DNA of 33,970 bases from Psammoneis japonica (taxonomy: Eukaryota). The stretch covers positions 582,182 through 616,151 of the forward strand of contig QPGO01000036.1 in assembly GCA_008632985.1 (NCBI GenBank), written 5' to 3'. Under the pieces are notes generated by a model, which was not told where the DNA came from, made no database searches, and saw nothing but the letters and a program-made list of their open reading frames with translations. The position numbers and the translations under genes are program-made. Each line of letters opens with the position of its first letter. Position 1 is the stretch's first letter. Positions 1-33,970 of the stretch are shown one piece after another.

Positions 1-1576
1 TACCATCATCTGGAAACCTCAATAAAAAATAATAACTTTCAGAAGAGCACCAGCATCATACTATACCGCCATCGTGTTGCACTCGCTCGCTCCGCTCCGG
101 TTACAGTAGAGCGAGAGCATACCATACGGTAGATAGCTGGGCCTACTCTCTCTACTCTAGTAGCTACTGCTACTCTCTAGAGTAGAGCTTGTACTGTAGA
201 GAGTAGGACCGTAGCTGCTAGAGTAGCAGCAGCTCTGCGTGATGGCACTTCTTCATGGAGCGGGCGGGCGCCAGGGGCTGCAGAGCTTCTCTGCCGACTG
301 GGCATCTTGTGCAGGAAACCAAGGGACATCACCATCATAGGATCTTGGGGCCAATGTCACAATGGCCTGTTGAAAGTGAGCGTGTGCCAAGTCTTTCCCC
401 ATTGACAGATGAAGATTGTCGAGCGGGGTGAGCAACATGGGGGCAGCTGCAGAGGCATTCACACAACTCAAGAGCTTGCTGTCACAGGACCAGACAACCC
501 ACTCCAGCCAAAGGCAGGGCTCCATGTGATGTGGTCCCACAGATTCCATGTGCAAGCTCTGCAGCTTGCAGCCCAGTCAATGGATGCATTCATCATTTTT
601 GACACACTCAAGTGAAGAACAACCAACAAGGCACCACTTCACAGCTCACAGATGTTGAAGAGTGGCTTTGCATGCAAAAATGTGCCAAAAGTTGTTGAGT
701 GGACAGCCCAACAACTGTGCTGCAAGGTGGCACAAAATTCCACCAAAGTCAAGCAGAAATGCAAGTACACGACATGTGGCACATGCTGATGGGGCAAAAA
801 AAAACACCAACATGTCACAGACCAGCAGCACAGGCCATCCCACCCAGAGCTGGAGCTTGTTGAAAATGAAGCCAAGAGATGGAGGGCATTTTTGTTGAGC
901 CACTGTTGTTGCAGTGAGAAAGTTTGGATGAGGGTTCTTGCACACTGTCAACAACATGTGGAAAGGTCAATGGACACTTCTTGTGATGGTTTTCAAGTGG
1001 ACGTGGTGCTGCTGTGGTCAGTGCACAAAAGAGCCAGAGCTGATTGCTCTGTTTGGGTTTGCCCATGTGTCTTGCAAGCTGTGCAGCAGGCACCATGGGT
1101 TTGTGTGAGTGCATCTTGCCATCATTTTTTCTCAAGTTTTAGTGCAAAAATGTGCGGTGGAGTGCATTGACTCCCATGGCAATGACAGCTCTTGCACTCT
1201 TTGTGCACGCAGAACCCGCCACATGGCACATGGCAAGCACCAATTCCATCTGAAGTGGCAGGTTGAAAATTCACAAAACCATGCCAACTTCAATGAAAGC
1301 CACTGTTAAGTTGGCTGATGCATGATGGAATTGGCATGTCAGCAGTGCTGTCAAAAAAGCAGCAAGAAAAGTCCAACATGACAGAGAGCTGGTGTGTGTC
1401 ACTCACTCAACTTGTGCACCAATCTCTTTCTTCTCTGGCCAATCCTCTCCATCATCTCATGTGCTGGGGGGTGCATTCCAGACACAGGTGGGAATCAATC
1501 TGTGTGACATTGGGCCAGCAGAATTCCATGTGCAAGCTCTGCAGCAAAATTGTTGGGCAATGAATGTGTCAACGAC

Positions 1577-1596
1577 AGACCATTTTGCATGGAAGA
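1577..1596 (+). repeat. Left terminal inverted repeat (mutated copy)
   Basis: Reverse complement of 6276-6295 except one CG->TG change. Confidence 0.9.
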
Positions 1597-1687
1597 AGGC
1601 CAGACAAAGTGGGGTGCGTGGAAGATTTTGGCCTCAAACTGCACCACGGGGACACAAAGCCACAAAGGACAGAACATTTGCATTGTC

Positions 1688-4200
1688 ATGGGAGTTCATA
1701 GTTTGCCACACCCCTGCTGCCATGTGGAAGGTTCAACAACTTTCTCAAGAGAAGCCACGAGCTTGGTCTTCAAGGAAAAGTGACTGGCTTTGACGTTGCC
1801 AGACTTTTGCACATGTGTGCCCGACAACGCATGCATGCATGCACAAATGGAGACTGCGGCCCTTTGTTGCAGGACTTTTCTTTGACATTGAATTGTCTCA
1901 CCAGAATGTGTGGTCTTGGTGATGAGCTCTTTGTGGCTTTCAATGGAAGAGACTCTGAATGGAAGAGGCACGAACGTGCCACAAGAGACAATGCCAACTC
2001 TGCCTCAGACAAGAGGAACAACAGCACACAAAATGAACCTCTGTGTGTTCTTGTGACCACAAGAAGGTTTGCAACTCCTTCATGGTGTCTTCCATCAGTC
2101 TGTTGCACCAGAGGAGGCAGACTCACAGCTTTGGCACCATCCTGTTGCTGTCAAACAGAAGTGGTCATTTCTGGAGACTCTGACATGCTTGCATTTGGGC
2201 ACAAGAAACTGCTGATTGTTGACTCCTGTCACACTGAGAGTGTCTGCCTCCATGGCATGGAGAGTGACAGCATGAAAAGAGCTTTGTCAGAAGGCAGCAA
2301 AATGACTGCATTTCCTTGTGCTTGCCTTTCCTTTCTTGGTCACTCAGTCTTTCAGATCTTTGGCACTCTTTGTTGTGGGTGTGATGGCACACCCAATCAA
2401 TCTGGTGTTCCGGGTGTTGGCAAGCAGCAAGCAGAAGACAGCTCTAGAAATTTTCAGTGCACTCATTGATGAGGAATCCTGCAAGGAATCTGGCAACCCA
2501 CCAGAATTGAATGTCAATTGAGAAGCAAGCATCAATCAAGAAGCAGCAGCATCTTTGTCTTTGCAATGAGTGGCAGAATGCACACTTTGAAGTGACGAGC
2601 TTGATGACACATGGACATGCAATGGGGTTTCCATGTGTGTTGCTGTTGCAACTGAGTGCTTTTCTGAATGGGCCGTTTGTTGTGATTGCAACTGCAATGT
2701 CAGGCAACTCAATGGAAAACTTGTGATGCCAAGCATGGTCATGACAAGGAAACACGCCACTGGAGAAGTTGTGCCTCGTGGTGAGCTCTCAGAACATGAT
2801 TCCAAGAATCTTGCTGCATTCAACCCACACAACCACTTTTACACAAATCATGGCTGTCTAAGAACAAGGTTGCTGATTGCTGTCTTGAAGAGGACAAGCC
2901 AGAGCAATGCAATGTTGTGCAGTTGAGGAGCTTCCTGAATGCTCGTGGAGCCAACACCAAGACAATCTCCAGAAAGATGACTTGGCAAAGTGCACAAAAG
3001 GCTTTGTCTTTCTTGAGGCAGAGGCACCTCATCTCATCCAAGCTTTCAACTGGGACAAAAGAACCTCTGGTTCTTTCTTTGTCATTGTCACTGAAGACCT
3101 GTGAGTGAAAATTCATGAACCACTTGAGAATCTCATGACTGCGGATTTCTTTCAGAGAAAAGAACACAACAAATTGAAGTGCAAGTTTTGAAAGCATGCC
3201 ATGATCTTTGCTCCAGGGGAAAGTTTCTTGCCAAGTTTGAAGACATTGCAGTTGAGAGCCCTGAACTTGCTGATTCTTTTGTTCACAAGTGCTGTGGCCA
3301 CGTTGGTGAAAGCAAGCACCAGAAGACCATCAGCACGGCCCTCCAATGGGTTCTGGATTGTGGATTGCCAGGAACTAAAGCTTGGCATGATTGCATTCTC
3401 AGATGACAAGACAAAACTTCATGTGCCATCTGAACAATTGGCATCCATGAGCAAGAATCAGAAAGAGAGGGCAGAAGAAGGTGAGTGAAAAGCACTCTGC
3501 CTGCACCTCATTCTCATGGTGTTGCAAGTTGAGCCAACTGCCCAAGCAAAAGATGGGCACAATCTTGGGTGCATTGTTGGAGTGATTGAAAGCCATTCTT
3601 GTGCTTTGTGCACTGCTGGTTTTGGCCAATGCACACACCATTGCTGCTGTGCACTCCACATCCAGCACCATCATTGGGGTGAAGAGAGAAGCACTCCCAA
3701 GCCTGTTGCAATGGGCAAATGTTGCTGGATTGCAGGAAATCAGCAATGTCAGCATGGCGCAACTCAGGGAGTTTCAGAAATGCAGCTCTGTCAAGCTCCA
3801 AAGACAGAAGAGGAAGCTGAGAGATGTGCCTTGAGGATGCATGGAGAAACATCAACTTGGGTGTCGGACCTCATTGTGAAATGCATGGCAACAATGCAAG
3901 CTGTCAAAGAATGCTGGATTGGAGGCATTTTTCTGAGGACAACCCAGTGGTGCAAGCTCTGTTCAAGCATCTCAGAACAATGCAATGAAAAAGCCAGACT
4001 GGCTGCTTTTGGTCAAATGTGTTCCAGAAACACAGCTGCCAGGGGTTGTCACACAGCCAGTCTGCAGTTCCAGTGCATTTGTTGTGCATTGTGCTCCTCT
4101 CTGAGTTTCTGAAGCCAGTCTTCATGAATTGCCATCTCACCAACATTGACCAACAACTTTTCTGGCTCTTGTTCCGCTGGCTCCGCAAACATCTTGTGCT
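1688..4200 (+). pseudogene. Transposon accessory gene remnant: XPG/FEN1/EXO1-family 5' nuclease, SAP-like motif, SWIM zinc finger
   Basis: Motifs in order across frameshifts: MGVHSL (1688), GFDVARLLH, FVAFNG..WKRHERATR, VAPEEADSQL (~2102-2131), VVISGDSDMLAFG, H3TH-like GCDGTPNQSGVPGVGKQQA, QLRSFLNARGANT..KDDLAK (~2917-2990), SCALCTAGFGQCTH..CAL..CCW (~3595-3730). The 3' end is approximate. Confidence 0.8.
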
Positions 4201-4329
4201 CACTTGTCATGCTCCAAAGGTGAACCTGTCCATGCACATCCACCAAACCATCATCTGCAGCACCACACCAGCAAATGCAGGCTTGGCAGGGATGTTGTCT
4301 GTGGCTTCCATTGATGCAATGCATTGACT

Positions 4330-6210
4330 GCCCACGGGTGATGGCAGGATGAAAGTTCTGCACAAGGAAACACACCCGCATCAACAACAGAGCCAGGTTG
4401 AGCTGAAGCAGTGGGGCGACACTGTTGAAGCATCTGCCTGTCATCTTCGCATGCCTGCCACCTGTTTGATGACAATTCTTGCATTCCCAATCTTCTGGCA
4501 GGGAGCCGCATCCTTGCTTGGCCATTGAGTCTGTGGCTTCAGTTTCTCAGTGGGGCAGATGCACATGACTCCTGACAATGCACACAGATTGTCAATGAGA
4601 AACCCCTTGTCCACCTGGACTGCATGCCCAAATGGCACATTTTCAATTGGTTTGAAAATGTTGGGGCAGATTGAATCCCCACAACTGCCAGCCGCTCCAT
4701 CTTTTGGCAGAGAGCCTTCATGCGTGCATCCAATGGGGTCAGAGCCACCAAAGAACTTCATTGTGTCCCTGCCCTTGTGCTCAGAATGCATGGTGGCATG
4801 CCCTGTCTTCATGCAGGACATCTGTGCCTCCTCCTCTGTGGCATCAAGAATGAGGAAAATAGAAGCATGCCCAAAGGCCCAAACAAATCCAGTCTGGAAA
4901 AACAGCCCACTGCCAAATGATGTCTGAAACAATGGAAGCAGCTTTGATTCCAACAAGTGGGGCAATTGCTTCCTTCTGAGCTGATCCAACATGACAGTGA
5001 AGACAGAAAACAAAACACTCTGTTTTTCAATCAATGACCTGTGCTTTTGGTTCAGTTGAGTGTGCAGTGGGTGGCTCAACATCACCCTTGTGTTCCCCCA
5101 GTCTAACCTTGCTGTGACACTCCAGTCCTCATGCAAGACCCGGATTGCCATCTTCTTTCTTCCAGCTCAGCACACTTTTCAAGGAAGTGCTCATCAGCTT
5201 TGAAATTGGGGAAAAAGGCCAGGTGCAAGGTCCTTGCATGACAGAGGAGCTTGCTGAGACAGATCTTCTGGCTTGCCATGTGTGCACTCTAGCTTGACTC
5301 CAATTCAGAAATCTTCAACATCTCCACTGTGTTCCCTTGCTGATCTGCAGCTCTGATGCAGAGCTCTCCCATCTCATTGTCTTTGTCAGATGGCTTTTTC
5401 TTCAGATGCTCTGCCACTTCATTCATGTGCTCTACCTCCAACTTTTTTCCCTCCAATTCTTTGTTGCAACTGTGGGCTTGAGCTGTCATTGCCATGGTGT
5501 GCTTCTCTGCTGGCACTCTTTCAATGGAAGATGGGGCACCAGCATCTGGACGAGTGACAAACTTCTTGGCTGCTCTTGACCTGGCTGTTCTCAGTGCATT
5601 GCTGACATTGTTAAAAGGATTGGAACTTTCAGGCCTTGAAGTGTTGCTGCCAGGACCATTTGTCTTCATGTCGTTCCTCTTGGCGTGTCTCTCTGCCACC
5701 AGCACCCACAAGCAGCCCAAACCACTCTGACAAGTCTGATGCCACAGTGCCAGAGAAGACACTTTCCACCGCTCTTGGGACCACACCTTGCACCTTTGCT
5801 TTTCCATCTCTTTGTGTGACTCAACTTTGCAGTTTGGAGGGGGGAAGCCAGTTTTTCTTTCCCCCAATCTCGGAATGTCGCATTGCTGTTGTGCGGATTC
5901 AGGCACCAGCACTTGTCCGACACATCAAAATGCCAATGTTCAGGATGAAAATGCCATGGTGCAATCACCTGACTGTGTGGATCATTCAAAAAACTTTCTC
6001 TCAATGCTCAGGTTTGACTCCAAGAGCAGTCATGACATTTGCGACAAAATTGTTGGGCACACGCACCATGTGAGATGAAGAACACCCCATTCCGTGACAA
6101 AAGGTGTTGTCACAAATGTGCAAGATTTCCTTCCTTTCGCGTTTTCGGGTCTCATGTGTTGTGGACCAAGAAGAAAAGGACCTTTACCATCGGGGGCGAC
6201 TGGAAACCAT
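4330..6210 (-). pseudogene. DDE_Tnp_4-type (ISL2EU/Harbinger-like) transposase remnant
   Basis: LILDATE, HATMHSEHKGRDTMKFFGGSDPIG (family pattern tYSxYKxxxTxKfLxGxxPxG), VQVDKGFLID, KIGNARIVIKQ and RVCFLVQNFHPAI. The N-terminal part has a C-x4-C...HF (THAP-like) segment and a coiled coil. Several stops and frameshifts; ends approximate. Confidence 0.88.
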
Positions 6211-6275
6211 GACTGCCGATGAAACACGCATCTACAGGTGTCGCTCGGGGTTGTGTCCGCCTTGTGCGTCTGTTC

Positions 6276-6295
6276 TCTTCCGTGCAAAATGGTCT
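6276..6295 (-). repeat. Right terminal inverted repeat (retains CG and flanking TA)
   Basis: Reverse complement reads agaccattttgcacggaaga; followed by AT. Confidence 0.9.
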
Positions 6296-6365
6296 ATTTT
6301 ATACTCTAGCTTTCGCATTTCGCACCGTATTCGTATTATTTTTGCATGCTCCATGCCATCTCACC

Positions 6366-7502
6366 ATGAGCCGCCGTCATTCACCGCCGTACAAGACAAG
6401 AGGCCTTGAAGATGAAAGCGACGATTCCATGTTGTTGGATGCTCTTCGCGGCTTGAACTTGCCAAATATGCCCAGCTCTAGCAAGGAAACCCCAACAATT
6501 CGGATACTGGCAGTTGCCGATGTTGATTTGCCGAGTGCGGCGGCTCTTGCCGAGTATGCACTACGAAAAGACGACAATTCCATTGGCGGAGGTAATGTAG
6601 ACTTATGTATAGCTTGTGGATCTTTCTGTAGTGACGACAACCTCCTGACAAATCCCAGATACTTGGAAGGTCGTTCTCGACAACGTATGGAGCACAGATT
6701 GGCAGGAGCTTCGGGCAACATTGCACACACGAGAGCTTTGCGGACGCGAGAAGAATCAGCAGCATTAGAAGGACTGGTCTCAGCAACTCTGTCACAACTA
6801 GAAAGCATTGTATGTCGATTGGTATTTATTCCTGGTCCCAATGATCCGATTTCGATAATCTCGCAGCCACCAAACACACCGCCTCGCCGGCTTACATCCA
6901 ACGCACGTAACGTTCATCGGCACTGGCTGCAGCTAACACCGGGGCTTGGCTGTGCTGGATTGATGGACGAAACGAGTATTGAACCAGATGCGGAGGATGA
7001 TGGTACTGGCTATATAGAAGCTGCGTCACGATTGTTGGAGTTGGCAAACCCAAACGAGCAGCATTACTCAAGTCACCCATCCTTATTAGCTTTTGACACC
7101 CCCTTGTCACAAACTATACTATTGACAGAACCATCACCACCTTCAAGAGAAGTACAACATGACGATACAAGTAGTAGAAATAGCTACAAACATGGTGGTG
7201 AGAGTCTCAATGATACGGATCTCTTTCCCCGAGAGTTCTTGCGGTTCATCGATGCTCCAGCAACTCAAAGCCAAGTTCTTGTCAATGTCTCTTCTGGAGA
7301 CGAACCATACCTAAGCCAACGGGGTAATGTATCATTGATTATACCAGGGTCCTTGCGAAAGAGTGGTGATTTCTGTCTGATAAATGTCGGACTCTGCCGA
7401 AATGACAATGCTACTAGTGACGTGTCGACTGGGTGCTCCTCCTACAACTGGAGAGTCAATCGAGTGGAATTTCGAAACATGAGGGAGGGGTCAAGTACTT
7501 GA
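6366..7502 (+). CDS. Uncharacterised protein, probable degenerate calcineurin-like metallophosphoesterase fold (378 aa)
   Basis: Long clean ORF of normal composition. ILAVADVD, DLCIACGSF and LVFIPGPNDP resemble the DxH, GDxx and GNHD blocks. ATG 6366 chosen because the upstream part of the ORF lies in the transposon end. Confidence 0.8.
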   Translation: MSRRHSPPYKTRGLEDESDDSMLLDALRGLNLPNMPSSSKETPTIRILAVADVDLPSAAALAEYALRKDDNSIGGGNVDLCIACGSFCSDDNLLTNPRYLEGRSRQRMEHRLAGASGNIAHTRALRTREESAALEGLVSATLSQLESIVCRLVFIPGPNDPISIISQPPNTPPRRLTSNARNVHRHWLQLTPGLGCAGLMDETSIEPDAEDDGTGYIEAASRLLELANPNEQHYSSHPSLLAFDTPLSQTILLTEPSPPSREVQHDDTSSRNSYKHGGESLNDTDLFPREFLRFIDAPATQSQVLVNVSSGDEPYLSQRGNVSLIIPGSLRKSGDFCLINVGLCRNDNATSDVSTGCSSYNWRVNRVEFRNMREGSST

Positions 7503-7921
7503 AGCTCGAAATACCGACATTTGGGAAGGAAAGTTGAATATGAACGAGTACGAACGCAGAAGATGGTGTCGGGGGATACTGTTTCTGACGAAGGGGAGTC
7601 AAGCTGGCGTTGCGACAACGACGAAGACGATTTTTTCGACGCTTAGAAAGCTTGCCTGCGGGATGAAAAAAACATGTGACGATTCTCAAATTCGAAGGAT
7701 AGAAAAAATATGACATAGAAAAATGTATTGCATCGCCAACATTGCGAATTGAGCATGCGGGTGTGTGTCTGCCAGTATCACTAGAGCGTCACCGTATGAT
7801 GCAATAATTAACGATGGTTTCTGTTGTTGCATCATGGCTTTTCGACAGAGTATAATACCAAATGAAGAACTATTGTTCTATAATTGTTGAAATGCCCCCC
7901 TCTCTCTCCAGCATCTCTGTC

Positions 7922-10900
7922 TTACCTACTACTGCAAGAGCCCGTATTGGGATTTCCTGTCCATTTGCAATTCGTGCACGCGGTGCAATCGTCTTTGATG
8001 GTAATCGACGTACATGATGCACATCCGGTGGGTGCTGAGACGGGGCTCTGGGACGGAGCTGGCGTAGTCGGTGTCGGTGGAGAAGGGCTCAGGCAGAGAC
8101 TTCCCGAGCCTTGCCAGGTGCAAGAGCTTGGGCCACAATAGGATCTGCACGGGCCGCCCCCAGCACCATCCGCATCACGGCAGTTGCAAGCCACCGGGCT
8201 GGCGGAAGGTGCCGGAGTAGGAGTCTTTGTTGGAGCAGCAGAAGGCGCCGGAGTGGGACTCTTGGTCGGAGCAAAGGTAGGGCTCTTTGTTGGAGCACCG
8301 GTGCCACCTGATGTAGGGGCAGCGGTAGGACTCTTGGTTGGAGCGCCGGTTGGAGCCTTTGTTGGCGCTGCGGTGCCGCTTGGAGTTGGAGCAGGTGACG
8401 AGGAAGACAACAGAGTGCAGAGAACTGGACGAACACCTTCACCAGCAGCTTCGGTAGACCAATACTTGTACACACTGGTACCATCCAAAGCATAGATGGC
8501 CAAGGATACCTGTGAGGCTGCAATGTTTGCGTTGACGAGCGAGGTGAGGTCAAAATCAACGGGATCATTCCTGACCGTTGGTGATGCCCCAGTGGCGATT
8601 GGGCCACCGACTGTTGCCGCCCCGGGCGAGTCCCAAGTGGAGGTGCCTGCCGACCAATTGTTATTGTCTAGCTCGTAAATGGCTGTAGTGACGCTTCGGT
8701 CAGCACCGTCGGTGTAACCAAAGAGACGAAGAGTAGCGTACTCGACAGAACTCGTGACGCCGCTAACGTCAAACTTTATGAAAGTTTGTCGAATGTCTCC
8801 AGCGACTGCCTTTGTATCAATTCTGTCGGACCCAGCGTAATTATTGGTAGGATTGGCTTCACGGATGGTGGTATCTTCCAAAGCACCCGTACACACTTCG
8901 AACGGACCAGAATCAGGGGACCTTGTCGGCATGTCAGTAGGCGAATTCGTCGGAGGCTCCGTAGGCTGGGGAGTTGGGGTCAACGTGTTTCCTGCCAACA
9001 CTGCTTCGACTCTGAGCAAGGCCACGTGGGTGGTAGTGCCGTCGCTCACCTCAAGCTGCAGCTGGTACACTCCATCCGTGCTGAATGATGCCGTTGTTTC
9101 AATCGCTGTCGCGTCCGCAATAGTAGCCACGCCAGGCCCAGACACTTGGCTCCAGGTGTAGCTATGCGAGTTTCCTAGCATTGTCAGGTCACGAACAATA
9201 CCACCAATGCCAAAGGACGTACTGGGCTCCGGTGGGTACGCGTCTTCGTCCTTGAACGTGATCAAGGGATCCAAGAACAGTCCATTCCCATACCAATTTG
9301 CCAGTTCCGTCCACACATCGCCCCACAGTTGATCCGGAAGCACAACATGACGAAGCGCATTCTGGCTGTTCAACCGATCTTTGAGTTGCGCATAATAGAG
9401 GGATCGGGGCGTCACGTGCTGCCCAATCGACCTCCAGAGACCGTTCTTTTCCACAATCGAGGAGTTGGTGTGCGGACCAATGTTTCCAACCGCCCAGTTC
9501 ATGGCGTTATTGGGAGCATCATTATTGAATGTCCCTTCGCAATTCCAAAACATGATTTGCGCACCACTCCAGCCGTGGCCAGATCCGGAGTCTCCTCGAT
9601 TCCGAACGCGTATCTGGCCGTTATTACCAAACGTGTCGAGAGTTTTGATGTTATCGTAGAGCTGTCCTGTTGCGTACCTATGATGAGGCCCAATGTCCGC
9701 ATTGGATAGAGTCGCCAGGGAGTCGACAAAGACATTGGGTCCCGGCGTGCGAGACCCAGAGACGTAGTCATGGCGGCCTTCGGAAGTGAGGCATCGATGA
9801 AAAAAGACAAAGTCAGAGTCGTCCACGTTGAAGGAGTAACGGCGGCCTCCCGAGATTGGGCTCTTGTGTTCAAGCATGGCGGAATCTTCGACAGTAATAT
9901 AGCTGGAATGCGATTGAACCGAGACCAAGCCATACCCAAAATACTTTCCTGTGACTTGACGAACCCACGAGTCGCGTACACCTTCAAATTCAATACCTTT
10001 CCAGCCGTGATTTTCGTCCGTGCTGGAGGCAAACGAAGATTCCAAGCGGATGTTCTCAACTCCAACATTGTAGATCTCGTTCTTCTGATAGGCATAGACA
10101 TCCGCACCACCGTACAAGACGGTATCAATGGCCTGGACAACGGGGGCATCAATCTCAATCTGATCGCCAATGACGCTTTCTACTTTGCGACGCCAAATGA
10201 GCTGACAGTAAAAGACCGAGAAACAGTTAGAAAACATGGCAAAGTCGCTATGCGACATGTGGTAGTCTACATGATTCTCTCACCTGATAGCTTTCCGTGG
10301 TCCATCCATACAGACCCATGTTGGACATTTCATCAAGCCAGGCTTGATTTGGCGTGAGCTTGATGGCAATCTCATCACCCTCAGTGAAACCATGACCCGG
10401 AGTGACGGTGAATGTCTTGGCTCCCGTGGGAACAAAGTTATCGGCAACTTGTACGGTTGCTCCCGACGCCACGGGTGAACTCGTGTCTCCAAGAATGTTA
10501 ATCATGGAACTCTTGACATTGCTCGTGTAGGTCACATTTGTTCCTCCTACGCCGGAGCCTTCGCCACGAAGGACAACACCACTTGCCGTGATGGAAAGCT
10601 GATTAAAGACCTCGTAGTCGCCTGCCTTCAAGAGTACGGCACCACGAAACCCATCGACCAACGGAAGCCCTGATACAGTATTAATTGCGTTTTGAATCGC
10701 GGTTCCATCATCACCGGGACCGGGATTCACCTGTCGCAACAAGAGAAGGAAATTAAGAGTGAGATGACTCGAGTTACAGTTATGAAACAGAGTAGTGCAC
10801 GAGAAATTTAGCTCAGGAGTCATTCTTGCTTCTCACATACCGTCGCTTGTGTTGGAACAAAGGGGATCGCAACGCCACCACCTTTATAGCCCACGTTTGA

Positions 10901-11125
10901 AAAGTCGGGAACCGTGTTGGTTTCTCCACCACTTACAACATTGTTGTTGGGTCCACTCTCGTTTTCGTACGCGTCGTATGTCAAGGTGATGCCATCCGAG
11001 TCGAGCGACACGAGCTGCGCATTGGGATCGAGCAAGGAGCGACGACGGATACGGACGCCAGCAGCATCAGCCCCACAAAATGAGGTAGTAAGAACAGCAG
11101 CAACAACAACAAAGCCAAACTTCAT
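7922..11125 (-). CDS. Secreted pectin-lyase-like beta-helix protein with PKD-like domain, DNRLRE/CBM96-like module, Pro-Thr repeats and Cys-rich tail (~1003 aa)
   Basis: Exons 11125-10841, 10730-10284 and 10201-7922 join in frame through GT-AG introns of 110 and 82 bp. Signal peptide; PDFSNVGYKGG, GDDGTAIQNAIN, FRGAVLLKAGDY, GPHHRYATGQLYDN, GSGHGWSGAQ, PRSLYYAQL; YTWSQVSGP..YQLQLEVSDG; DTTIREANPTNNY..FIKFDVSG. Confidence 0.9.
8190..8395 (-). repeat. Coding Pro-Thr-x-Ala/Ser (PT) linker repeats
   Basis: APTKAPTGAPTKSPTAAPT...PTPAPSASP in translation. Confidence 0.85.
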
Positions 11126-11519
11126 CTTGAAAGGTGTTACTGTACTGATTTATGCCTTAGCCTTATGCCTCCATCGATGATGTCTTTTTTCTTTATTTTG
11201 ATTTTTTGGACGGCGCCACGGCCGGCCGGCGGCGGCAGATTAGATTCCGCTTGTATGTACGAGCATTACGTAGAATGTACGTGTATTGAAGTACAATCTT
11301 ACAGTGTACGTATAAGTCTCTCGAAGCAGGCAGATACAGTAGTGTATTTATTGCCTTCTTTTATCTGGCATGATCAATACTTAAATAATAAATGACATTG
11401 GAAAAATGGTATTTATTGACGGTCATTAGACGATTGTCATGACAGAGACAGGAAGGACGTGTGTTGGTGTCTGTCGCTAGCAGGCTTAGGGCCCTCTACT
11501 GTAGGTTTACGGTGGCTCA

Positions 11520-13290
11520 GCATTGGCATGCACGACACCCAAGGATTTGTGAGTCTGTCAATCCTTGCTTACATCTGATCTGCTCTCCAATGGCAGCAGC
11601 TCTAGCTGGCTGGCAGAGAGGGGGATGGGGGCTCCCCAGTTTATTTGTGTGGAGCATGTGGGTTGTGAGCCACTGCCAGTTCGCACTGCGACACTCTCAC
11701 TTGGTGCTGCCGTCTTTGTCTGAGAGCCTGGATTCTGAACTCGAGAAGGACAAAAAGAACAGAAAGTGCTGGCACTATGGCTTCATCATGCAGACTGCAA
11801 GAGTTTGCAATTGTTGCAACAAGCACCTTCGTGTGTGGTTTGAGGCCGCGTGGTGTGTCTCATCGCTTTGTTGGTCCAGCCGTCTTCTGGTGCGGCCGGG
11901 AGCAGGTCTTTTCTCTCTTGAGGAACCTGTTCAATGAAAATCAAACAAGACATCTCTCTGACAAGATTGTGCTCTCTCTCTTTCTTGCACACAACAACAG
12001 GCAGGGCTGTCCAGGCACCAAGTGGAGTGTTGGTTTAAAGCAGCACACAGCGGCGCTTGTTGCTGCAGAAGATTCAAGCACAAAATGTGGTGCGCTGCCA
12101 GCAAGAGTGTTGCTCTTCTTTAGGCACCAGCTCTGGCAAACTCACAATGAGAAATTCCTGTCAGCCTGCTGCTTCCCATCTTGTTCCCCACTTGTTCTTT
12201 CTCCACTGGCTTGCCGGCCGCTTTGCCTGCGCTGCTTGTGCAAAAGCCACGCAACCTTTTGTCATGCTGCAAAACTCTCTGCACACCTGGCAAGTGTTCC
12301 TGACACAGCAATGCTTCCATTTTTGCAAAACCATGACAGGAAACTGTTTTGGCTGGCAAAAACGCTGACAACTTCAAATGCGCCAAGTCCGTCATTGAGT
12401 TTTCAAGCAGCCCTCAAAGCTGAACCCAAAACATCAAATGCAAAGATGTGTGTGATTTGTGAAGTGTGACAAGCTGCAGGCACCACAAAGATTCTGCTGT
12501 CTCGGCTCCTCCTCTTGCGCACAAAAGTTGCCGATTGTCACCAACAAAAGCACAGCAGGCAGTGGAAGACCTTGGTTGTTCAGACTCAACCCACCCATTT
12601 GGAGCTGCCAAAATGCTGGATTGATGGACAAAACAAGCGTTGAGACAGATGCAGAGGACAACTGCACTGGCCACACCAAAGCAGCATTGTGATTGTCAGA
12701 GTTGGAAAATCCAAACAAGCAGCACTGCTCAAGTCACCCATCTTTGGCTTTTGACAACTCCTTGTGACACAAACCACACTGCAGACTGAACCATTGTGAC
12801 CATCACGAGAAGCAAAACATGCCGGTGCAAGTGACAGAAACAGCTGCGCTGTTGTTGTGAAAGTCTCAATGACACAGATCTCTTTCCCCGCAAGCTCTTG
12901 CAGCTCATCAATGCCCCTGCAACTCAAAGCCAAGTCATTGTCAATGTCTCTTCTGAAGATGAACCACACCCAAGCCAATGGGGAAACACGGCATTGATTG
13001 TGCCCCAGAGGGTCCTTGCAAAAGAGTGGTGACTTCTTCTGTCTGGCAAATGCAGGACTCTGCCGAAATGACAATGCTGCCAATGATGTGCTGACTGTGT
13101 GCTCCACCTGCAGTTGGAGAGTCAATCAAGCAGAATTTCGAAACATGAGGGAGGGGTCAAGCACTTGAAGCTCGAAATGCCGACATTCACCATGAGCAGC
13201 AAGAATGCTTGGGGAAGGAAAGTTGAAAGATGGAGGAGTGCGAATGCCGCACGCATTGTGCATTGTGCTTGGAATGAGATTCTGATGAAA
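11520..13290. other. TpA-void, CpG-poor hypermutated domain 2 (unidentified repeat remnant plus duplicated gene fragment)
   Basis: About 6 TA in 11520-12125 and none seen from there to ~13295. Confidence 0.92.
12614..13247 (+). pseudogene. Mutated partial duplicate of the 3' half and 3' flank of the 6366-7502 gene
   Basis: Collinear with 6953-7557, e.g. tgctggattgatggac, ctcaagtcacccat, gatctctttccccg, actctgccgaaatgacaatgct, gaatttcgaaacatgagggaggggtcaag; small indels and stops. Confidence 0.95.
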
Positions 13291-16289
13291 TGTGATTGTA
13301 TTCTGACTTGGGAGTCAGCCTACGGCATGGAAGCCATTACTCACTATTTCCAGCAGCGGTTTAGAATGCTCTTTCTTTCGGGAACGAAACATGTAGATCA
13401 GGACGTTAGCACGAAATTATCAGAATTTCGCTCGTAACAGACAAGAGATGAAATTCCGGAGTACTTTAGTCTGCCTTGAGGACAATGTCCTTGATGCATT
13501 GGTCGGCAAGGAGCTACGGTAGTCGAATGCCGTCTTCCCTGGTGTTTTTTTTTTTCAGATTTTAACATGGTACATTCCCTCGAGAAAGAATCGATGCTGC
13601 CTCGTTGCAAGGAGACATCGTGAACGCTTTGACTTCTTGTACCTGGTCGAGAAGAGCATCTAGATTTAAACAAGCAGAACCCAGAACATGAAGAAACGAG
13701 TGATGTGAGAACCCAGCGGTAGCTCGTAGCTCTGCATTTGCTCGCCTTCACCCGCACGGCGACCGGCCTAGCTCAATCCGGCTTCTTACGTTGAAACTTT
13801 CTTGTCGACTCCACAAGCCTTGCGAGAAAGAAGAGAGATGCAAGAGACCACAAATATCTTAGCGCTCGTAAACCTTAATGACGGTAGCTATGGATCTTAC
13901 GTTTATGGTTGCCTTCCAACACACGCTTTCCTTGCGGTGATTGAGTTTAGTCGTTGAGCTTTACACAATGTTGAGCTTTACGTACACAATATGTATCTTC
14001 CGCAGAATCCTTCAAGAGAGACCACTCTGCCGGTATAATAGATGCAGCGTGGTGCATGCTGGTGAGACGAGTAAGGGGCCCTTGTCTTTCTTTTTTAAGC
14101 TCCTTTTTCTTTAGCAAAGCGACTGCATCGGTAAACTCCTTTTCTGTTTAAACTCCTCTTTCCTTTGCGCATCAAACATGCCAAAAACTATCTCTGGCGT
14201 TAAATGAACAAGAAGACCAACAACAACAACAAAATGAGACAAGTAACAGTACTGTACGTTGTGAGAGAACGATACCATAAAACTATCATTGCAGGCTACG
14301 AGTCCAAGTCACAGCGACGCACCGGTTGGAGTTCAAAACCGAATTGTTCTCACTAAAGGTGCGATAGGAGACAGCGGCATCGATGATGAGAAAGAGATCA
14401 GACGCCCAAACCAAGAGGCAGAGTGAGACTCTGCATCGTACCATATCGAATAGACAACGATGAATGTCATCGGAGCTAAGCTTGATGGAGCGGTAAACTT
14501 CTCTGTTTGAGTGCCGCCACCGCTGTTTCTGTTGTCCCAGAGTTTCAGTCCTCCTCTTTCTTCTATGAACTTGTAATCAGTTTAAATCTTGCCCTAAAGA
14601 GATGCAAAACGGATAGACTCAGAAGGTGAGAATGCATTAGACACGGTAACTATTCTTTGAGAGCTTGCATCTCTACTCCAAAACACACCTTGACAGAAAA
14701 CCCCAAGTGCGGCTGTACAGAAGGAGAAACAGCATCTTGAAGAAGAAGACTAGAGTTCCACACTCGCTTCTCTTCTTTTCTGGGTTCATAATTGTGTGGC
14801 TTGCAATCTTAAACATCAGTGTGGATACAACAACAGTGATCTCTTCAGATTCACCAGGCGCAACCACATCTTGCGTGTCTCTGTTGCCTTTTTTATTCGG
14901 CGTGCTCATCTCCGTCGACTTCATGATGGGAGTATTTTCCAATGAAGGCACTGACAATCGCACCGTTGAAGAATTAGATAAGTTCAGTCGAGTGAGTTTG
15001 TTTCGGATCTACTGATAATCGAATACCAACAATCGATTCCACAAGTGTCTATATGGAAGACCTTGCTAGTGGTGATTTGTCACGGCTTGTGCCTTGATCT
15101 TTGGATTGTTTGCTGCCCGTGTTTATCGAATGAAGTTGAGTCAAAATGAACCTTTCGCTACGGTACCAAACATCTCATGCTCTACCAATTGACAAAGGAC
15201 AAGAACCCTTGCGCAAGCACTGGCGGTATTGAAAAATAGAATCATGACATGATCGAGGACGATTAAAAAGTGGGACCAGCATGCAAATGTAATAATACCT
15301 AAACTACCGGTACCCGTTCCTCTTGTCCGCCGAGGAAGAGGATTCATCATCCGCACTGGGTACATTTGGATTCAGGTGGGCGATGGTGATGAATTTGGGC
15401 AGCCCGTTTCGGAAGTTGGAGTAGCGACGAACGGGTCGGGCTCGGCATACGGTATGTATTCTCACAGTAGGGCCCTACCGTTAGTTAGGGTCCTTCACAA
15501 TATTCTCCTCCAGATTATCCTAGACGAGCTCAATGCAGTTGCAATGCGCTCTACTCTCTAGGGCTACTAACTACTCCTAGTGTCGGTACTTACACTACTA
15601 TTTTATGCCGTGGGTGGAGACTCTACTAGCTAGCTCTCTTCTAGGGATAGAGAATAAAGTAGTGAAGAACTCGAATGCACTATGCTTTGCTAGCCCTGCA
15701 TTACTCGAGAAATACCAGTACAGTAATGAGTTCGAAAGCGTGTCTTCCGACATAACATCCAAAGCCATGGAGAGGATCTGGCAAGATTTCAAAGAATTGA
15801 CAGATCATTGCGCCCATCGCTTGGTTTGGGACACATCGTTGCCCGTACTCGTCGTCGTGTTGTCGTCGATAAAATCTAAAAAAACCCATGAATAATCGAA
15901 AACTGAAACCGCGTTCTTGGCATCGACCTATTTTCGTTTTCCCACTTTCATTCTCGTGTTAAGAGAAATACATGTGCAATCATTTTTTTCTCCTATGGTA
16001 CCTGTACTTTTACCTCTCTGCATGACGCGACAAGCTAACAATTATACTCCTTTCCTCCCGTAGAAGATCAGACATGGTTGACTTGCCAATCTGGCGAGTA
16101 GATATGGGCCATTGTTGAAGAGAAAGAGACTGATAGACGACAACAATAGAGGTCTCACGCGCCATCATTTCCCCCATCCCCACCGTGCTCGTACGGCATG
16201 CTTTATCGAGACAAAAAACCAAACGAGCAGCGGAGACACGAAGCCAGGAAAAAATCGACAAGCGCTTCAAGAACGAGCACCGTCTTATT

Positions 16290-18225: not shown

Positions 18226-18493
18226 CTCGTTGCCATCCGTGCTCAAGGCGTATCGATCATCACGTTGTTGCGGGTGTTCTTTCTACACTTCTTGGACCGT
18301 ACCGTAGGACATTCGATCAGAACATAAGACGACGACACCATGCAATACGCATCAACACACGAGATGTCCTTGTTGATGTAAATAGTGGAAATCATTCAGC
18401 ATCTAGAGAGAGCAGCTTATTATATACAGTAGAACCGACTTATGCCGATCATCATTGTTCTCCTGTCATCGGCCATCGGCGCAGACGATCTTC

Positions 18494-18630
18494 GATTTTT
18501 GCTCGCAGCAAAAATTTCACGGGATTTTGCCGTGTTAAAACGGACGCACAGACAGACAATCCTAGATTTTTGCTCGCAGCAAAAATTACACGGGAATTTG
18601 CCGTGTAAAAACGGACGCAGACAGACAATC
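18494..18630. repeat. Two tandem copies of a ~71-bp unit containing hairpins
   Basis: gatttttgctcgcagcaaaaatt..cacggga.tttgccgtgt.aaaacggacgca..gacagacaatc at 18494 and 18565. Confidence 0.9.
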
Positions 18631-20286: not shown

Positions 20287-20513
20287 CAATATAACTACGT
20301 GTCTCCAGCATACCCTAAGCAACTACTATCTTCATACGGTACGTTATAAATGGACTAGATAAAGAGTACTGTAGTCAACAAATGATAATGAAAAAAGCGA
20401 ACGGGAGCATTCTGCGCCTGTGACGGAAAAGGTGCATGACTCTTCAAGTTTCCTACGATAGAAAGAGTATCTCGAAAGGACAGTAGCACCTTGAGCATTG
20501 CTCAGGGATTCAC

Positions 20514-22293: not shown

Positions 22294-23983
22294 ATGGCAG
22301 TGAAACGACAGCGCAAAACCGCTTCTCAGGAAAAAGAAGTAAAAGTGATCTCCTGGATTGGCGTGGTCCAAGAACGATGAAGATGTCTGGTCATCTTCAT
22401 CCGAAGACGAACGTGATAATGTTGATGATGAGGTTTCATCTCAAGAAGAGGAAGAAACTGTCGAGGCGAAACGCATTCGTATGGCACGGGCCTATTTAGA
22501 CAAACTTCAGGAGAAGCAGGATAGTGAAGATAGCGGCGACGATGACGGGATTGCCGGTGATGACGACGAGGATGTTATCGCCATGGAATTGCAGCGACAA
22601 CGTTTACTCAAGCAGGGAACTCCAATTGAACGAAATTTAGCTGAGGATGTGCGACAACATATTCTCAAGGTGACGGCTACTACTCGCAGTCACGAGTCAC
22701 CAGAGGCACAAGCAAAAGAATGGGTTGCCAATGGTACTGTTCAGCTGTGGCGAGGACATGACTTGACACCGACCTGTGTCGCAATGCCTTTTCGACAGAA
22801 TGCCACTCAATGTGTTTCTGGGTCCAAGGATCATTCAGTGTACCTTTGGGACATTGGTCGAGAGGGACATACTAAGATGTGTTTGGTCAAAAAATGGAAC
22901 GAGGATGCTGATGTTGATCGCAAGGGCGGACAAGTCACGTGCATTGCTATGCGGAACCAATACGTTGCGGTGGGACGAGAGGATGCTACAGTTTGCGTGT
23001 ACGACACGAGGCTCGCGGGAAAAACCAACTGCAAAGTCACGAGCTTTGCAGGGCACAAAGGGCCGTTGACTTCCCTAGTGTTTGGGGATGACCTACAACT
23101 CTTTTCTGCAAGTACGGATCGATGCATACGGTATGTAGGATGTTGACTCAAGCCGCCTTTGTTTTGTCCCAATTTTGCGACTCATGTAGCTGTTCTTTCG
23201 TTCCGCAGCCATTATAATTTGCAGGAAATGGCGTATATCGAAACTCTTTATGGTCATCAGTCAGGCGTTGTTGATATGGATACATGCTTTGGTAGCAGCC
23301 ATCCCATTTCAGTCGGACGCGACCGTACTGCGCGACTTTGGAAGTTGCAGGAAGACGCACACTTGATCTTTCGAGGTGGCGGACAGTTGCACGCAGCAGA
23401 ACGAATCTCATACATTAGCAAGAACTGGTTCATCACTGGGCATGAAGGTAACGCAACCTTGGCCTTGTGGAATGCCCGAAAAAAGAAAACAATTTGTACC
23501 GCAACTCACACTCACGGCAACGAAAGCAACCAGTATCGTGGAGTATCGGCCTTGGCGTCGTGTCCGTCGAGTGATCTGGCGATCAGTGGATCTAATGATG
23601 GATTTATGAGATGTTGGAAGGTAAGCACATCGAAACTTCCAACGTGGGGATTTCACTGCTTGCTGTTTGGTCCTTGCTCATGTGTTGTTCCCATCGTGCG
23701 CTACAAGGTTACGACAGAGAGTCAAGAGGAAAAGATTGTACCGAACATTGAACCAATTGGCCAGATTCCCATTCATGGATATTGTAATGATATCGCTGTT
23801 TCGTCAGACGCCAAATTCTGTGTCGCCGCGGTTGGTCAGGAACCCCGACTAGGACGATGGGACCGTGTGCCGCGTGCCAAGAATCGTATTTGCTTTATCG
23901 CCTTGCAATCTGATGGTAGCTCTCACAGTAGCAATGATGGAAATGCATCGACCAGTACAGATAGTGAGTCGGAATCAGAATAG
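22294..23983 (+). CDS. RRP9: U3 snoRNP-associated WD40 protein RRP9 / U3-55K
   Basis: EETVEAKRIRMARAYLDKL, WD repeats, MAYIETLYGHQ, SVGRDRTARLWK, AAVGQEPRLGRW..AKN. Introns 23131-23208 and 23621-23707. The likely ATG (22294) is out of frame with the body at ~22330-22357. Confidence 0.9.
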
Positions 23984-24199
23984 AAACGAGACTGACACAA
24001 TTGTCGCCTCAAAATGAGAGCGCTCTGAGTAATACAGGTACGACGATATATTCTTTCTAGAATCTTTTATACGAGAGCTATTAGACTAGCTTATCATCAG
24101 ATCTCATTGACTGTGTATGTTGGAAAGAAGATGGTAACACCTCTTGAAATTAGACAACAGTTTTAGATCCGAGTGCATACCAGGTGTTGGTACATTATA

Positions 24200-25500
24200 C
24201 AGCATGCATCACCACCGCCCAACCCGACTTCCATGCAGAAGCGCCGCTTGCGTTCAGCATGTTGATTGAAGATGATGTGCCACAGTTGGCTGACGATTGC
24301 AAGGAGCAATTGTCAGGTGTGGCTTTTGCAGGAACCGGATGTTGTGATCGTGGCATGTTTGGAGTCGAGACGAAAAAGGAGTCCAGGAAGAGAAGAAGCA
24401 CTGGCATCATTTTGACAGTTGTTGGATGTGCTCAGCTCTGGACATCTCCATTCCATTGATTGTGGTTTGCAGTGGCTGCATGGAGAATGGCTCTGTTGGC
24501 TTCACAGGCAGTTCTTCAACACCAAAAAAGAAAAAAACTGCTTCAAACTTTTGGACAGATCACAAGAAGTGGTGGTTGATGAGAAGATTCTCTCACAAGA
24601 TCTCCAAGTGTTGCACAATTCACTCACTCCCTTCTCTGCCTCCAATCTTGGAAAATGCTGAAGTGGCAACTCTCTCCAGCAACCGCCCCTGAGAGTTCAC
24701 ACAGTGCCCGTGTTGGCTTGTGATGTGCGCCAAGCAATTTTTCAAGCTCTGGTGGCAGTTTCTCAATCAAGTCTTTCTCAAAGTCCTTGGCAGCATCATT
24801 GCCCCCATGCTGGCAACATGTTGAGTGGATCTTGGAGCCAACCACACACGGCTGCCACAAGTCGCTCCCCAAAATCATCATCTGTGCAGCCCTCGTGTTG
24901 GCTCCTGCTGCTCTGAGAGAGTGTCATTTTCAACATGCTGCAGCAGCTGACAATGACACTGCCCCATGCCTTGCATTCATCCAACCACCATCAGCTGCAA
25001 CTCGAGCTGGCCCAAAACCCAAAACACCGCCACGCCGCCACCAGCAAAAACCCCGGTGTGCAGAGCTGTGGCAACAAGGTGAGTGGGTGGACTGGCAGAA
25101 GGCACAAGAAAATGGGCAAATTCTGTTGCACTGCTTGTTGAGTGCATGCACTCCGCAGCCACAGCTGAAATGTTGTGACGGTGATCACTTCTTTTGCCAG
25201 CTGACTTGCAGCACCTGATCCGAGGGTGGCTCCAAAGTTTCGAAGAAAGCTCTGAGGGCCCTCCAATCTCTTTTTTTCTGTGCAACAAATTCTGCATAAT
25301 TTTCAACTGAGTTCTGAGTGCAACTTGTTTTGAGGCATCACTGATGATGGGATGCTCGCGAGGAGTGAGGATGTCTTTTCTGGATCTTTGCCGTTTGCCT
25401 GATCTTTGCGACCTCGTCAAGACTGAACAAGACCTCGCGAAACTTCGAGATGATGCGCGATGGCGGTGCGCCGCAGCTTTCCGTCCCAGCTTCGTGATGC
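24200..25500. other. TpA-void hypermutated domain 3 (unidentified repeat remnant)
   Basis: Only one TA seen (~25297) in ~1.3 kb; CpG is depleted in the core but retained at both edges. Confidence 0.92.
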
Positions 25501-26886
25501 CACGTGTAAAAAATAATCCCCCGTTTTTAACCAAATACCCACCTCGATCGACTAACAGTATACAGATACGGAGTTCAGCACACTTTTGGGGGCCTAGAAT
25601 GGGGGTGAACGTTAGTTACTAACCAATCACTGAAAATCGTCCCTCGTACTTTCACGTGTAATAAAGGTGCTCCACGAAAAGTTGGTTCTATTTTGAAATA
25701 CCAGATATCATGAACAATACATACCTATTACATTCTCGCAAGACATCGGTTTAATGAGGATGAGACCGATAATGCTCATATCTTGTGTATTTTGTTGCTC
25801 TAGCAGGGGTCAAAATCTAGCTAAAACTTCCAAAAAATTCGAGTCGAGCGGTTCCCACGGGATTCAATATGAAATACTCGTGACTCGCTGTACGATGAAG
25901 TGAAATTGACCCGTTCTCGACACCTAGATTAGATGATAACATCACCACAAACCGATTTTATGGCAATGTTCTACTTTCTAATTTGTCTTTGACCTCGTGA
26001 CCACTATATCCGACCTCTTTAATGCTATAAATGGGTGAAGCAATCCACGAATACTCATTCACAAGCCACACTTTTCTATTTTCAGATTTGACATTTGTGT
26101 CTTTGCGATCAATCTACTGTAGAGAGTATATACAAGCCAGGGAGGAGATCTATTCACTATTATTTATCATTCTATAGAATAATAGCATCAGAATATTTTG
26201 TCAACCATGTTTGACTGCTTTTTTCTTGAACCGTACGCCAACTTCATTCTTCATTTTCACTCTCATCCGCCCGACTCTCCCCATTCAAGAATACTTGGCT
26301 GAATGCATTACAGTTGCTTTATCAAAGTCTTCAAAAATACTCGTCTGGTCAACACCATTGATGAAATGGGTTTGACGATGTGACGACGACGTTGGATTCG
26401 TCGATGTGTTCATACTAGGAAAGACAACAAGAATTGACTGCAGCGGCAAGAAAGTTGAGTGAGACAACAATTGGTGAGCCTTGGATACATTGATAGCACC
26501 ATTTTGATTTTCAATTTACTTGCCTTTTTATAAACTAGGACTTTAACTCAGTGGGTGCCGAATATCCGGCAAATGGTGAGTTGATGGCGTCGTCTGCATG
26601 CAACATGCAACATGGCGTCACGAACGGGTGCAACGGCATGTTTGCATAAAACTCGACTCACTGCCGTTATCTGATGGTCCCTTTACAACCCCAAACGAAA
26701 GATAGTGTAATAAACCTGCTGTAGTAATGGGACTAGAAACGACGATTGTTTAGACACCTTATCTACCGCGTCAATGTCATCGTCGGCTCCGGCTGTTTTT
26801 TGACAAGTTCTCCGTGTACGTGTTGTCACCGCGGTGATGGTCTGTACGCTCATCCGGAGCGCGCCTGCCGTGCCAGTTTGAAGTTA

Positions 26887-33100: not shown

Positions 33101-33159
33101 GGAGTTCCCAATCGTCGAGACTGAACGGAAGCAAAGCATTGCTTGGTATTCTCCGTCAT
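30117..33159 (-). CDS. ANAPC4: Anaphase-promoting complex subunit 4 (one in-frame TAG in this sequence)
   Basis: N-terminal CPSMDLV..LHRTVSWQRL..VVWSPNG (APC4 WD40) and C-terminal SGSRGIGG..DLFDLEEDE. Exons 33159-32660, 32536-31444, 31352-31274, 31175-30396 and 30301-30117 join in frame via GT-AG introns; TAG at 31089-31087. Confidence 0.85.
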
Positions 33160-33369
33160 GGTCAACTCATATTCTGGCCGCTGCTTTTTTTGTTGTGTTG
33201 CGCGGATCTTCTGTCGCCGATCCAGGCCAGGCGCGCATCTATCGCGCATCCAACAAGATTGTCTGTCTGGCGAAATCCAGTCGAAGAGTGCAGAAGAAAA
33301 GCCAAAGATGAGCATCGCCGTGATGAAATTCAAAATTGGCAAAATGGCTCAATGAGAGCACAATTGAAC

Positions 33370-33970
33370 TAAATCAGAAAGGTCACAAATTCATCATCAT
33401 CATGTGAGCCCAGTGCAAGCACGTGTGGTGCATGGCACCGCAGATTCTGCTGCTCTTGACGGAGTGGCACACATCGCCTCTGGCGCTCAACCCCCGCCTG
33501 CTTGCCAGCCACCACTTGCATTTTAGCTGGCAACAGGGCCTTGTCATTCATGCAAATGGAGCCAGGGGACTGTCACAAAACTCCTCATCTCCAGACCCGG
33601 GTCATCTGCTTGGAGTTTTCGCAAAACAAGCAAAAGGAAGAAGTTCTCACAAAAGTGTTGCCACATGCGGCCCTTTCAAACCCAGCCTTCTTCTGGCCAC
33701 ACCATTTCCCTGAACTCATTTTTCTTTTCTCAACCACTGGGACTCTGCAAACCCACTTGCTCTCTCTTTTTAATGTGCTGCTCCCCATCTTGCTCCTGTT
33801 CTTCTCTCTCCATTCTTTTTGTCTCTCTTGCTCACACTCTTTTTTCTCTTTTCTGGCGCACTTCCAACTTTCCACATTCACTCAAACTGACCCACAACAC
33901 CTTCATTGATGTCTTGAGATTCCAACAAACTTCCCTCAGTTGTGTTTGCCCATCATCATCTGACCAAAAC
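33370..33970. other. TpA-void, CpG-poor hypermutated domain 4 (runs off the window)
   Basis: 3 TA in 600 bp (ctaa, ttag, ttaa); TG/CA excess. Confidence 0.9.

Follow-up and report, generated by a model that had tools for sequence, protein, structure and literature searches.

TpA dinucleotides are nearly erased from four discrete domains of a Psammoneis japonica contig, probably by in-place hypermutation

Why should discrete blocks of a diatom contig have lost almost every TA dinucleotide, when the genes beside them have not? The question is raised by a stretch of 33,970 nt from Psammoneis japonica (assembly GCA_008632985.1, contig QPGO01000036.1, positions 582,182 to 616,151 of the forward strand), which in its full length we call the window, and in which four domains, D1 to D4, are nearly void of TA. 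Our analysis points, with a probability that we put at roughly 80%, to an in-place, TpA-specific hypermutation of particular mobile or junk DNA, of the same kind as that reported in the chlorarachniophyte Bigelowiella natans. Such a process would change A:T to G:C at TpA on either strand (TA to TG or TA to CA) until TA is nearly gone, and would not act on the genes beside the void domains. Ordinary decay of methylated CpG, as a process apart, would strip CG from most of the same DNA, with both changes feeding TG and CA.

The compositional signature is confined to these domains. In 500-nt sliding windows, the observed/expected ratio of TA falls below 0.2 in 33 of 134, every one of them within four blocks (starts at 251-5751, 11751-12751, 24251-25001 and 33251), and the minimum outside the blocks is 0.21-0.39. 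With limits set from exact TA positions, and with expectations taken from the rate in the remainder of the window, D1 spans about 240-6294 (13 TA vs 251 expected), D2 11643-13298, its left edge graded from about 11509 (3 vs 71), D3 24199-25506 (0 vs 47), and D4 33241-33970, continuing past the window end (3 vs 31). In total, the four domains contain 19 TA against an expectation of about 400, and the Poisson P for the deficit runs from 2e-88, the value for D1, to 1e-10. The left edge of D3 is razor sharp, with TA at 24191, 24196 and 24198 followed by 1099 nt without any, and that of D4 lies about 80 nt upstream of the likely start codon of an APC4-like gene. CG is also depleted, with 47 observed vs 324 expected in the D1 core (339-6041), 37 vs 94 in D2 and 25 vs 62 in the D3 core, and TG and CA stand at 1.6-2.0 times expectation in the void windows. 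By arithmetic on these counts, D1 has lost about 517 TA and CG and gained about 474 TG and CA; its TG and CA counts are equal (666 vs 661), which indicates that there is no strand bias. The first-pass annotation of this DNA had described four discrete domains of near-total TA loss, with about 14 TA in 5.9 kb of the first, together with reduced CG and a richness in TG and CA. The counts bear out all of this, and its coordinates were accurate apart from D4, which begins about 130 nt earlier than it had placed it.

In D2 the TA-void state is derived, as can be read from a pair of twin copies that lie 5.6 kb apart in the window. The unmutated twin (6953-7557, + strand) consists of the last 183 codons and 3' flank of an intact, transcribed-looking gene of normal composition (6366-7502, + strand; spliced-type contigs cover 6351-7758), which has a weak DNA_pol_E_B match and none among PDB sequences or in NCBIfam. 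The hypermutated twin in D2 (12614-13247, + strand) is 79% identical to it, with two in-frame stops and indels. We took the gene copy as the reference over an aligned segment of 570 bp (6953-7521 against 12614-13187). The gene copy retains all 29 of its TA dinucleotides and an open frame, and in the D2 copy all 29 are destroyed: 14 have become CA, 11 TG, two CG (both bases changed), one CC and one AA. The CG dinucleotides fared similarly, if less completely, with 16 of 22 lost (10 to CA, five to TG and one to AG) and six kept. Substitutions comprise 84 transitions and 25 transversions, and one block of 135 nt is identical in the two copies after collapse to purine and pyrimidine. The five Tyr codons of the gene copy all read CAC or TGC in D2.

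The twin also gives the substitution spectrum, which is specific to the dinucleotide. A>G changes are found at 30 of 58 adenines preceded by T, compared with 6/74 after A, 8/81 after C and 6/86 after G, and the figure for TA is near its maximum because a single change already destroys the site. C>T changes affect 15 of 44 cytosines followed by G, and 7-9% in the other contexts, CpA (7/81) being at background. Seven double changes exchange TG and CA, four in one direction and three in the other, against a rough expectation of about three each way; this is as expected if TA or CG born by background transition is quickly pushed to TG or CA. TG and CA outcomes formed no long strand runs along the twin, which offers too few sites for such a pattern. 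The change was made in chromosomal DNA, in place, after the copies had separated, and on both strands equally. Given that a mutated and an unmutated twin stand 5.6 kb apart, the process follows the domain and not the duplication of a sequence.

Beyond the dinucleotide itself, small numbers show 5'-T-A-Y-3' as the preferred site. Surviving TA in void DNA lies in YTAR in 13 of 19 cases, compared with 170 of 1055 TA (16%) elsewhere in the window (P 5e-7) and with a YTAR share of 23% among CA/TG sites in void DNA (P 4e-5). In the twin, the A is changed in 24 of 38 TAY and in 6 of 20 TAR (Fisher P 0.026), with C (13/21) and T (11/17) as the most favorable 3' bases, followed by G (6/14) and A (0/6). 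Both double-changed TA sites of the twin are GTAT, where TAY is offered on both strands.

TpA loss is also separable from CpG decay, both in extent and in degree. At three borders (6042-6294, 25297-25506 and 33241-33369, 592 nt in all) TA loss reaches 80-250 bp past the loss of CG, so that D1 has a TA-poor fringe of normal CpG on its right and D3 has normal CpG from 25297 on. For these fringes the count of TA is 3 (25 expected) and that of CG is 37 (34 expected), with a P of 3e-8 that is generous, as the limits were chosen after inspection of the data. At two of these borders, the right of D1 and the left of D4, the 5' end of a gene adjoins the fringe. Within the cores, the CG remaining ranges from 15% (D1) to about 40% (D2, D3), whereas TA loss is complete throughout.

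What is the DNA that has been treated in this way? D1 contains a frameshifted relic of a PIF/Harbinger-type transposase (DDE_Tnp_4) at 4079-6245 on the minus strand, which is followed through several frames by tblastn of its relatives. The piece that we used as a query, a 241-aa frame at 4441-5166 (minus strand) with zero tyrosine, scores 18.4 bits against Pfam DDE_Tnp_4, below the cut-off of 24.8, and a word-based protein search with the mutated frame against longer proteins returned 0 matches. A phmmer (HMMER) search of 1.8 billion representatives with the same frame found 119 relatives (best E 4.6e-46), among which named transposases come from Thalassiosira exigua and Attheya; the five relatives tested against DDE_Tnp_4 all pass, with 47.5-61.9 bits, and some have a weak HTH_Tnp_4 match. 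The assignment of the family is therefore made through the relatives, the relic frame by itself being below the cut-off, and the dead transposon that the first-pass annotation had seen in this domain is a PIF/Harbinger relic. Elements of this class also carry terminal inverted repeats, a 3-bp target duplication and a second, Myb-like gene; D1 yielded only the inverted words of 19-20 nt described below, and Pfam on its frames recognized no second gene.

We compared the relic with its relatives column by column, dropping relatives with less than 1.5% Tyr and keeping codons with at least five aligned relatives. At the 10 columns with a Tyr majority, D1 has His (CAY) four times, Cys (TGY) twice, Phe (TTY) four times and Tyr never; one column that is Tyr in 27 of 27 normal relatives is CAC in D1, and another that is Tyr in 14 of 27 is likewise His or Cys. 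At 14 conserved Arg columns, four are kept and six have become Cys, His or Gln. The proposed changes would turn Tyr codons into His or Cys and Arg CGN codons into Cys, His or Gln, and would thus kill the transposase by missense and not by stops. The transposase family is not TA-poor by nature. Around the match in 40 metagenome loci of the family (25-58% identity to the query), TA observed/expected is 0.29-0.87, and a single 500-nt window of 542 falls below 0.2, one in which CG and TG/CA are normal. Tyr makes up less than 1% of 11 of the 100 representative relatives that reach 100 aa. At seven Tyr-majority columns, 13 of the 28 residues of these Tyr-poor relatives are His or Cys, vs 22 of 322 in 73 normal relatives. 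This excess indicates that other hypermutated copies are present in public data; the Tyr-poor relatives (P0121, P0122, P0137, P0157, P0158 and others) may belong to the organism of the window itself.

D1 is a repeat and a transposon, and is the sole domain that we have shown to be so. Pfam searches on the 74 frames of at least 70 aa from the four domains gave DDE_Tnp_4 in D1 as the sole match. D2 is single copy at 90% likeness or more, and scans for inverted repeats found no convincing termini for D2 or D3. D1, D3 and D4 proved mutually unrelated when the window was compared with itself, as DNA and in purine/pyrimidine space; the sole substantial match in the self-comparison was the gene twin, accompanied by a match of 41 nt and a short tandem duplication. 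Inside D1, a word of 19-20 nt at 706-725 recurs inverted at 1540-1559 and 6039-6058, and these words may be the termini of elements; an 832-nt read contig ends at 717 and 1548, near two of them. Summed contig depth peaks by a wide margin at 1402-1868 (1288.6 vs a baseline of 59.6), where there is probably a very abundant short element, perhaps with the inverted words of 706-725 and 1540-1559 as its limits. Just to the left of D1, a 90-nt cluster at 145-235 consists of nested inverted repeats of CTAG, GTAG and CTAC words and is very rich in TA. For example, 152-167 pairs with 211-226 at 94% complementarity. Read contigs differ by small indels in this cluster, and several of them stop at 143.

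The assembled bases are found again at the level of reads. A public DNA run, rebuilt into k-mer contigs with a word depth of about 60x, covers the void DNA with bases identical to the assembly, and one contig of 10,026 nt covers 4821-14000 with a single difference from the window. Contig depth is flat at 59.6 over the genes and D2, and in D1 the summed depth is 65.8-1288.6, as of multi-copy DNA; of the 206 contigs aligned, 128 are only 90-95% alike. Between the window and other read contigs there are 28 listed differences, 10 of which make up five adjacent CA/TG doublets, and position 767 is TA in the window and TG in another contig. These doublets and the difference at 767 indicate that copies of D1 decayed independently. 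Transcript-like (spliced) contigs of one run cover the genes at 6351-11165 and none of the void parts of 1-14000, where lack of coverage proves nothing. At two further places the contigs depart from the window. Position 11891, inside D2, is T (TG) in the window and C (CG) in a read contig at full depth, a discrepancy that reflects a CpG/TpG polymorphism or else a difference in assembly. At 7591-7618, just downstream of the gene at 6366-7502, contigs of two runs have 89 other letters in place of 26 nt, which may be an alternative allele or haplotype.

A process of this kind has been described once, in mutation-accumulation lines of B. natans, where TpA hypermutation was recorded in integrated viral DNA (Mettrop et al., bioRxiv 10.64898/2026.01.13.699255). 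Of the 231 mutations that this preprint counts in two integrated viral regions, all but one (230) were A to G or T to C, and it states that TpA is the site of every one of these GC-biased changes. In 11 of 15 lines the rate came to about 6e-7 per site per generation; it is given as raised about 1000-fold in the domain and episodic between lines. TpA-poor coding sequences of B. natans were enriched in DDE endonuclease and reverse transcriptase domains, and its authors proposed an ADAT2-like candidate enzyme (bioRxiv 10.64898/2026.01.13.699255). The first-pass annotation knew of no such description, and in this it has been overtaken. The likeness is close: in both cases TpA changes to TpG or CpA by transitions on both strands (here, 27 of 29 twin TA became CA, TG or CG), TpA loss is mirrored by gain of CpA and TpG in clustered windows, the changes lie in discrete blocks (of mobile DNA here in the case of D1), and DDE transposase sequences are among the victims. 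The host is a stramenopile diatom here and a rhizarian in B. natans. The targets also differ, being a multi-copy transposon relic, a captured and duplicated fragment of a host gene and two domains without a Pfam match here, as opposed to giant-virus and virophage inserts in B. natans. Saturation is far greater here, with TA observed/expected at about 0.03, against a Rho of 0.45 reported for the region of nucleocytoplasmic large DNA virus origin. CpG decay and the preference for a 3' pyrimidine are seen here, and a rate was measured in B. natans only, our data being end states; the words CpG, trinucleotide, "context" and diatom are absent from the main text of the preprint, whose supplements may hold contexts. 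The literature that we searched does not describe hypermutation specific to TpA in any diatom or other stramenopile.

Other systems resemble the signature in part. Ascomycete repeat-induced point mutation (RIP) likewise makes permanent, transition-only, context-specific mutations in mobile DNA, kills genes and leaves a dinucleotide scar. However, its C-to-T changes fall mostly on CpA and thereby give rise to TpA, whereas here TpA is destroyed and C>T at CpA is at background, in agreement with the earlier remark that the two processes run in opposite directions; and RIP mutates both copies of a duplicate, whereas the expressed twin here keeps all of its TA. A RIP-like pairing of duplicates was rejected on account of this unmutated gene twin. 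Decay of methylated CpG would explain the CG part of the signature: within void domains CG goes to TG or CA (15 of 22 sites in the twin, with C>T at 15/44 against 7-9% in other contexts), the excess is confined to the domain, and Arg CGN codons are turned into Cys, His and Gln. Transposons of diatoms are major targets of DNMT5-dependent CG methylation (PMC9998398). CpG decay would account for the CG part only, and its footprint is narrower than that of TA loss at three borders. Deaminase-based restriction in animals (APOBEC3 acting on retroelement cDNA, ADAR on double-stranded RNA) and the tRNA adenosine deaminases TadA and ADAT offer a further likeness in that editing can serve as defense. 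In the present case it is apparently chromosomal DNA that is altered, in place, and the 3' preference differs from that of ADAR. Taken together, the central proposal of the first-pass annotation, a near-saturating A-to-G change at TpA on both strands with CpG decay as a separate process, stands on the twin, the Tyr columns of the transposase and the TA-normal related loci, and the loss of Tyr codons that it had foreseen is found both in the twin and in the D1 frame.

Several other explanations have to be weighed against hypermutation. The domains could have arrived TA-poor, e.g. from a TA-avoiding donor or virus, as might be thought of D3, D4 and the part of D2 without known relatives. Such an origin does not agree with the TA-normal twin of the D2 fragment in the same window, with His or Cys in D1 where 27/27 and 14/27 normal relatives have Tyr, with the absence of a TA-void locus among the 40 related ones (the first-pass annotation had named a TA-void family as an outcome that would speak against hypermutation), or with copies that differ by CA/TG doublets. 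For D1 and the twin part of D2 it is refuted by the twin and the relatives, and as a general account we give it next to no credence. A similarly negligible probability attaches to artefacts, whether errors of base calling at modified bases or ADAR-type RNA editing followed by reverse transcription. Miscalls of modified bases do occur in some long-read assemblies, but contigs at about 60x from the public run carry the identical bases (a lack of support from reads was among the refutations named by the first-pass annotation), and Tyr-poor relatives with the same Tyr to His/Cys pattern exist as separate database proteins. As for editing, ADAR prefers a 5' U (bioRxiv 10.64898/2026.01.13.699255, Discussion), which fits the 5' T found here. 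Against this, D1 is a DNA transposon, and the gene fragment in D2 was mutated in place inside sharp borders. ADAR also favors a 3' G, whereas the order of 3' bases here is a different one, with TAG and TAA the least changed.

Another possibility, put forward by the first-pass annotation, is error-prone repair, in which T:G mismatches from deamination of 5-methylcytosine recruit a pol-eta-like polymerase that errs opposite T at WA. Pol eta does produce A>G at WA, and the losses of TA and CG mostly coincide. A WA process should, however, change AA as well as TA, and AA is at background (6/74 vs 30/58), so that the excess of A>G that was predicted for the spectrum is there for TpA only. Furthermore, TA loss is complete where CG loss is just about 60% (D2, D3) and spans 592 nt of border DNA with normal CpG (the borders being chosen post hoc), and in B. 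natans the TpA changes came without C>T changes. We consider error-prone repair very improbable. A modified base at TpA could instead be the true target, with mutation as a side effect of a silencing mark and no dedicated mutator; it might be 5-hydroxymethyluracil (5hmU) or 5-formyluracil, made by a TET/JBP-type enzyme and mispairing with G, or N6-methyladenine deaminated to inosine. The signature is indeed confined to domains with the footprint of another DNA mark (CpG decay), TpA is palindromic as are the sites of maintenance methylases, T>C cannot be told in sequence from A>G on the other strand, and dinoflagellate 5hmU is concentrated at TpA and TpC. On the other side, nothing in the window speaks for such a mark, the known eukaryotic sites of N6-methyladenine are ApT and not TpA, and a loss as near to complete as 29 of 29 would demand a very mutagenic mark. 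The rate in B. natans was also episodic between lines, as would be expected of a switched enzyme more than of a constitutive mark. We regard a modified base as unlikely.

Hypermutation at TpA, the reading that we prefer, has its own weak points. The direction of change rests on the single 570-bp twin and on protein columns, and all of the evidence consists of end states. Phe at four of the 10 Tyr columns is not explained by a TpA process. That the void domains are transposons and repeats, as first proposed, is shown for D1 only: D2 holds a duplicated fragment of a host gene, and a Pfam scan of frames revealed no origin for D3, D4 or the leftmost 1 kb of D2. The T-A-Y preference is drawn from 19 survivors and 58 sites. 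The public DNA run is possibly the source of the assembly itself, so that it supplies support at the level of reads and not an independent confirmation. Finally, TpA is self-complementary, and sequence cannot tell an attack on A from an attack on T.

How might TpA hypermutation be carried out? The chemistry that we favor, at a little under even odds, is that an enzyme, TadA/ADAT-like or another deaminase, converts adenine in DNA to inosine; no route to A>G is simpler. The tRNA adenine on which TadA and ADAT work comes right after U33 in the anticodon loop, and TadA naturally recognizes U-A-C-G, in line with the T-A-Y preference. The untouched twin and the sharp edges suggest that targeting works through a mark on the element and not through a homology search, and the mark is probably one of silent chromatin or small RNA. 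The purpose would be genome defense.

The remaining features of the window concern its genes, which have short GT..AG introns. A coatomer-beta fragment matches 637 proteins at E<=1e-10; identity is 55-64% for the best 120, and the 16 entries with a named organism are all diatoms. This agrees with the diatom setting assumed by the first-pass annotation and not with Bigelowiella, and places the window near no species already sequenced and annotated. The gene at 7922-10279 (minus strand) encodes a large protein that looks secreted and has PT repeats as well as CBM96 and PKD-like domains, and spliced contigs in this gene region show introns at 10202-10283 and 10729-10838. Apparent in-frame stops at 23147, in a WD40 gene, and at 32611, in the APC4-like gene, both lie inside short, frame-keeping GT..AG introns, which indicates that the genetic code is the standard one. 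At 18482-18630 there is a short tandem duplication of 80 nt, 90% identical, whose copies overlap head to tail.

What is new here, relative to a kind of process known from one preprint on another lineage, is its near saturation, an internal control in the form of the twin, the T-A-Y motif and the separation from CpG decay. For genome annotation, void domains lose Tyr codons together with two of the three stop codons, which gives rise to long false reading frames, and they escape homology-based repeat annotation. If our reading is true, TpA-erasing hypermutation is not restricted to one chlorarachniophyte, and shapes the repeats of diatoms, which are major primary producers of the ocean; it would constitute a third route to the permanent disarming of mobile DNA, besides RIP and CpG decay. 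It could even be widespread in the SAR (stramenopile, alveolate and rhizarian) supergroup. More tentatively, and with doubts that outweigh our confidence, diatoms and chlorarachniophytes might share an old SAR-wide defense, in which a DNA adenine deaminase with a T-A-pyrimidine site, directed by a chromatin or small-RNA mark that does not depend on CpG methylation, edits new inserts of mobile or viral DNA to death in place. An adenine deaminase acting on chromosomal DNA with a T-A-Y motif would, if real, be of interest to base editing, and if it were indeed SAR-wide, it would be the adenine counterpart of fungal RIP and a natural adenine base editor of double-stranded DNA.

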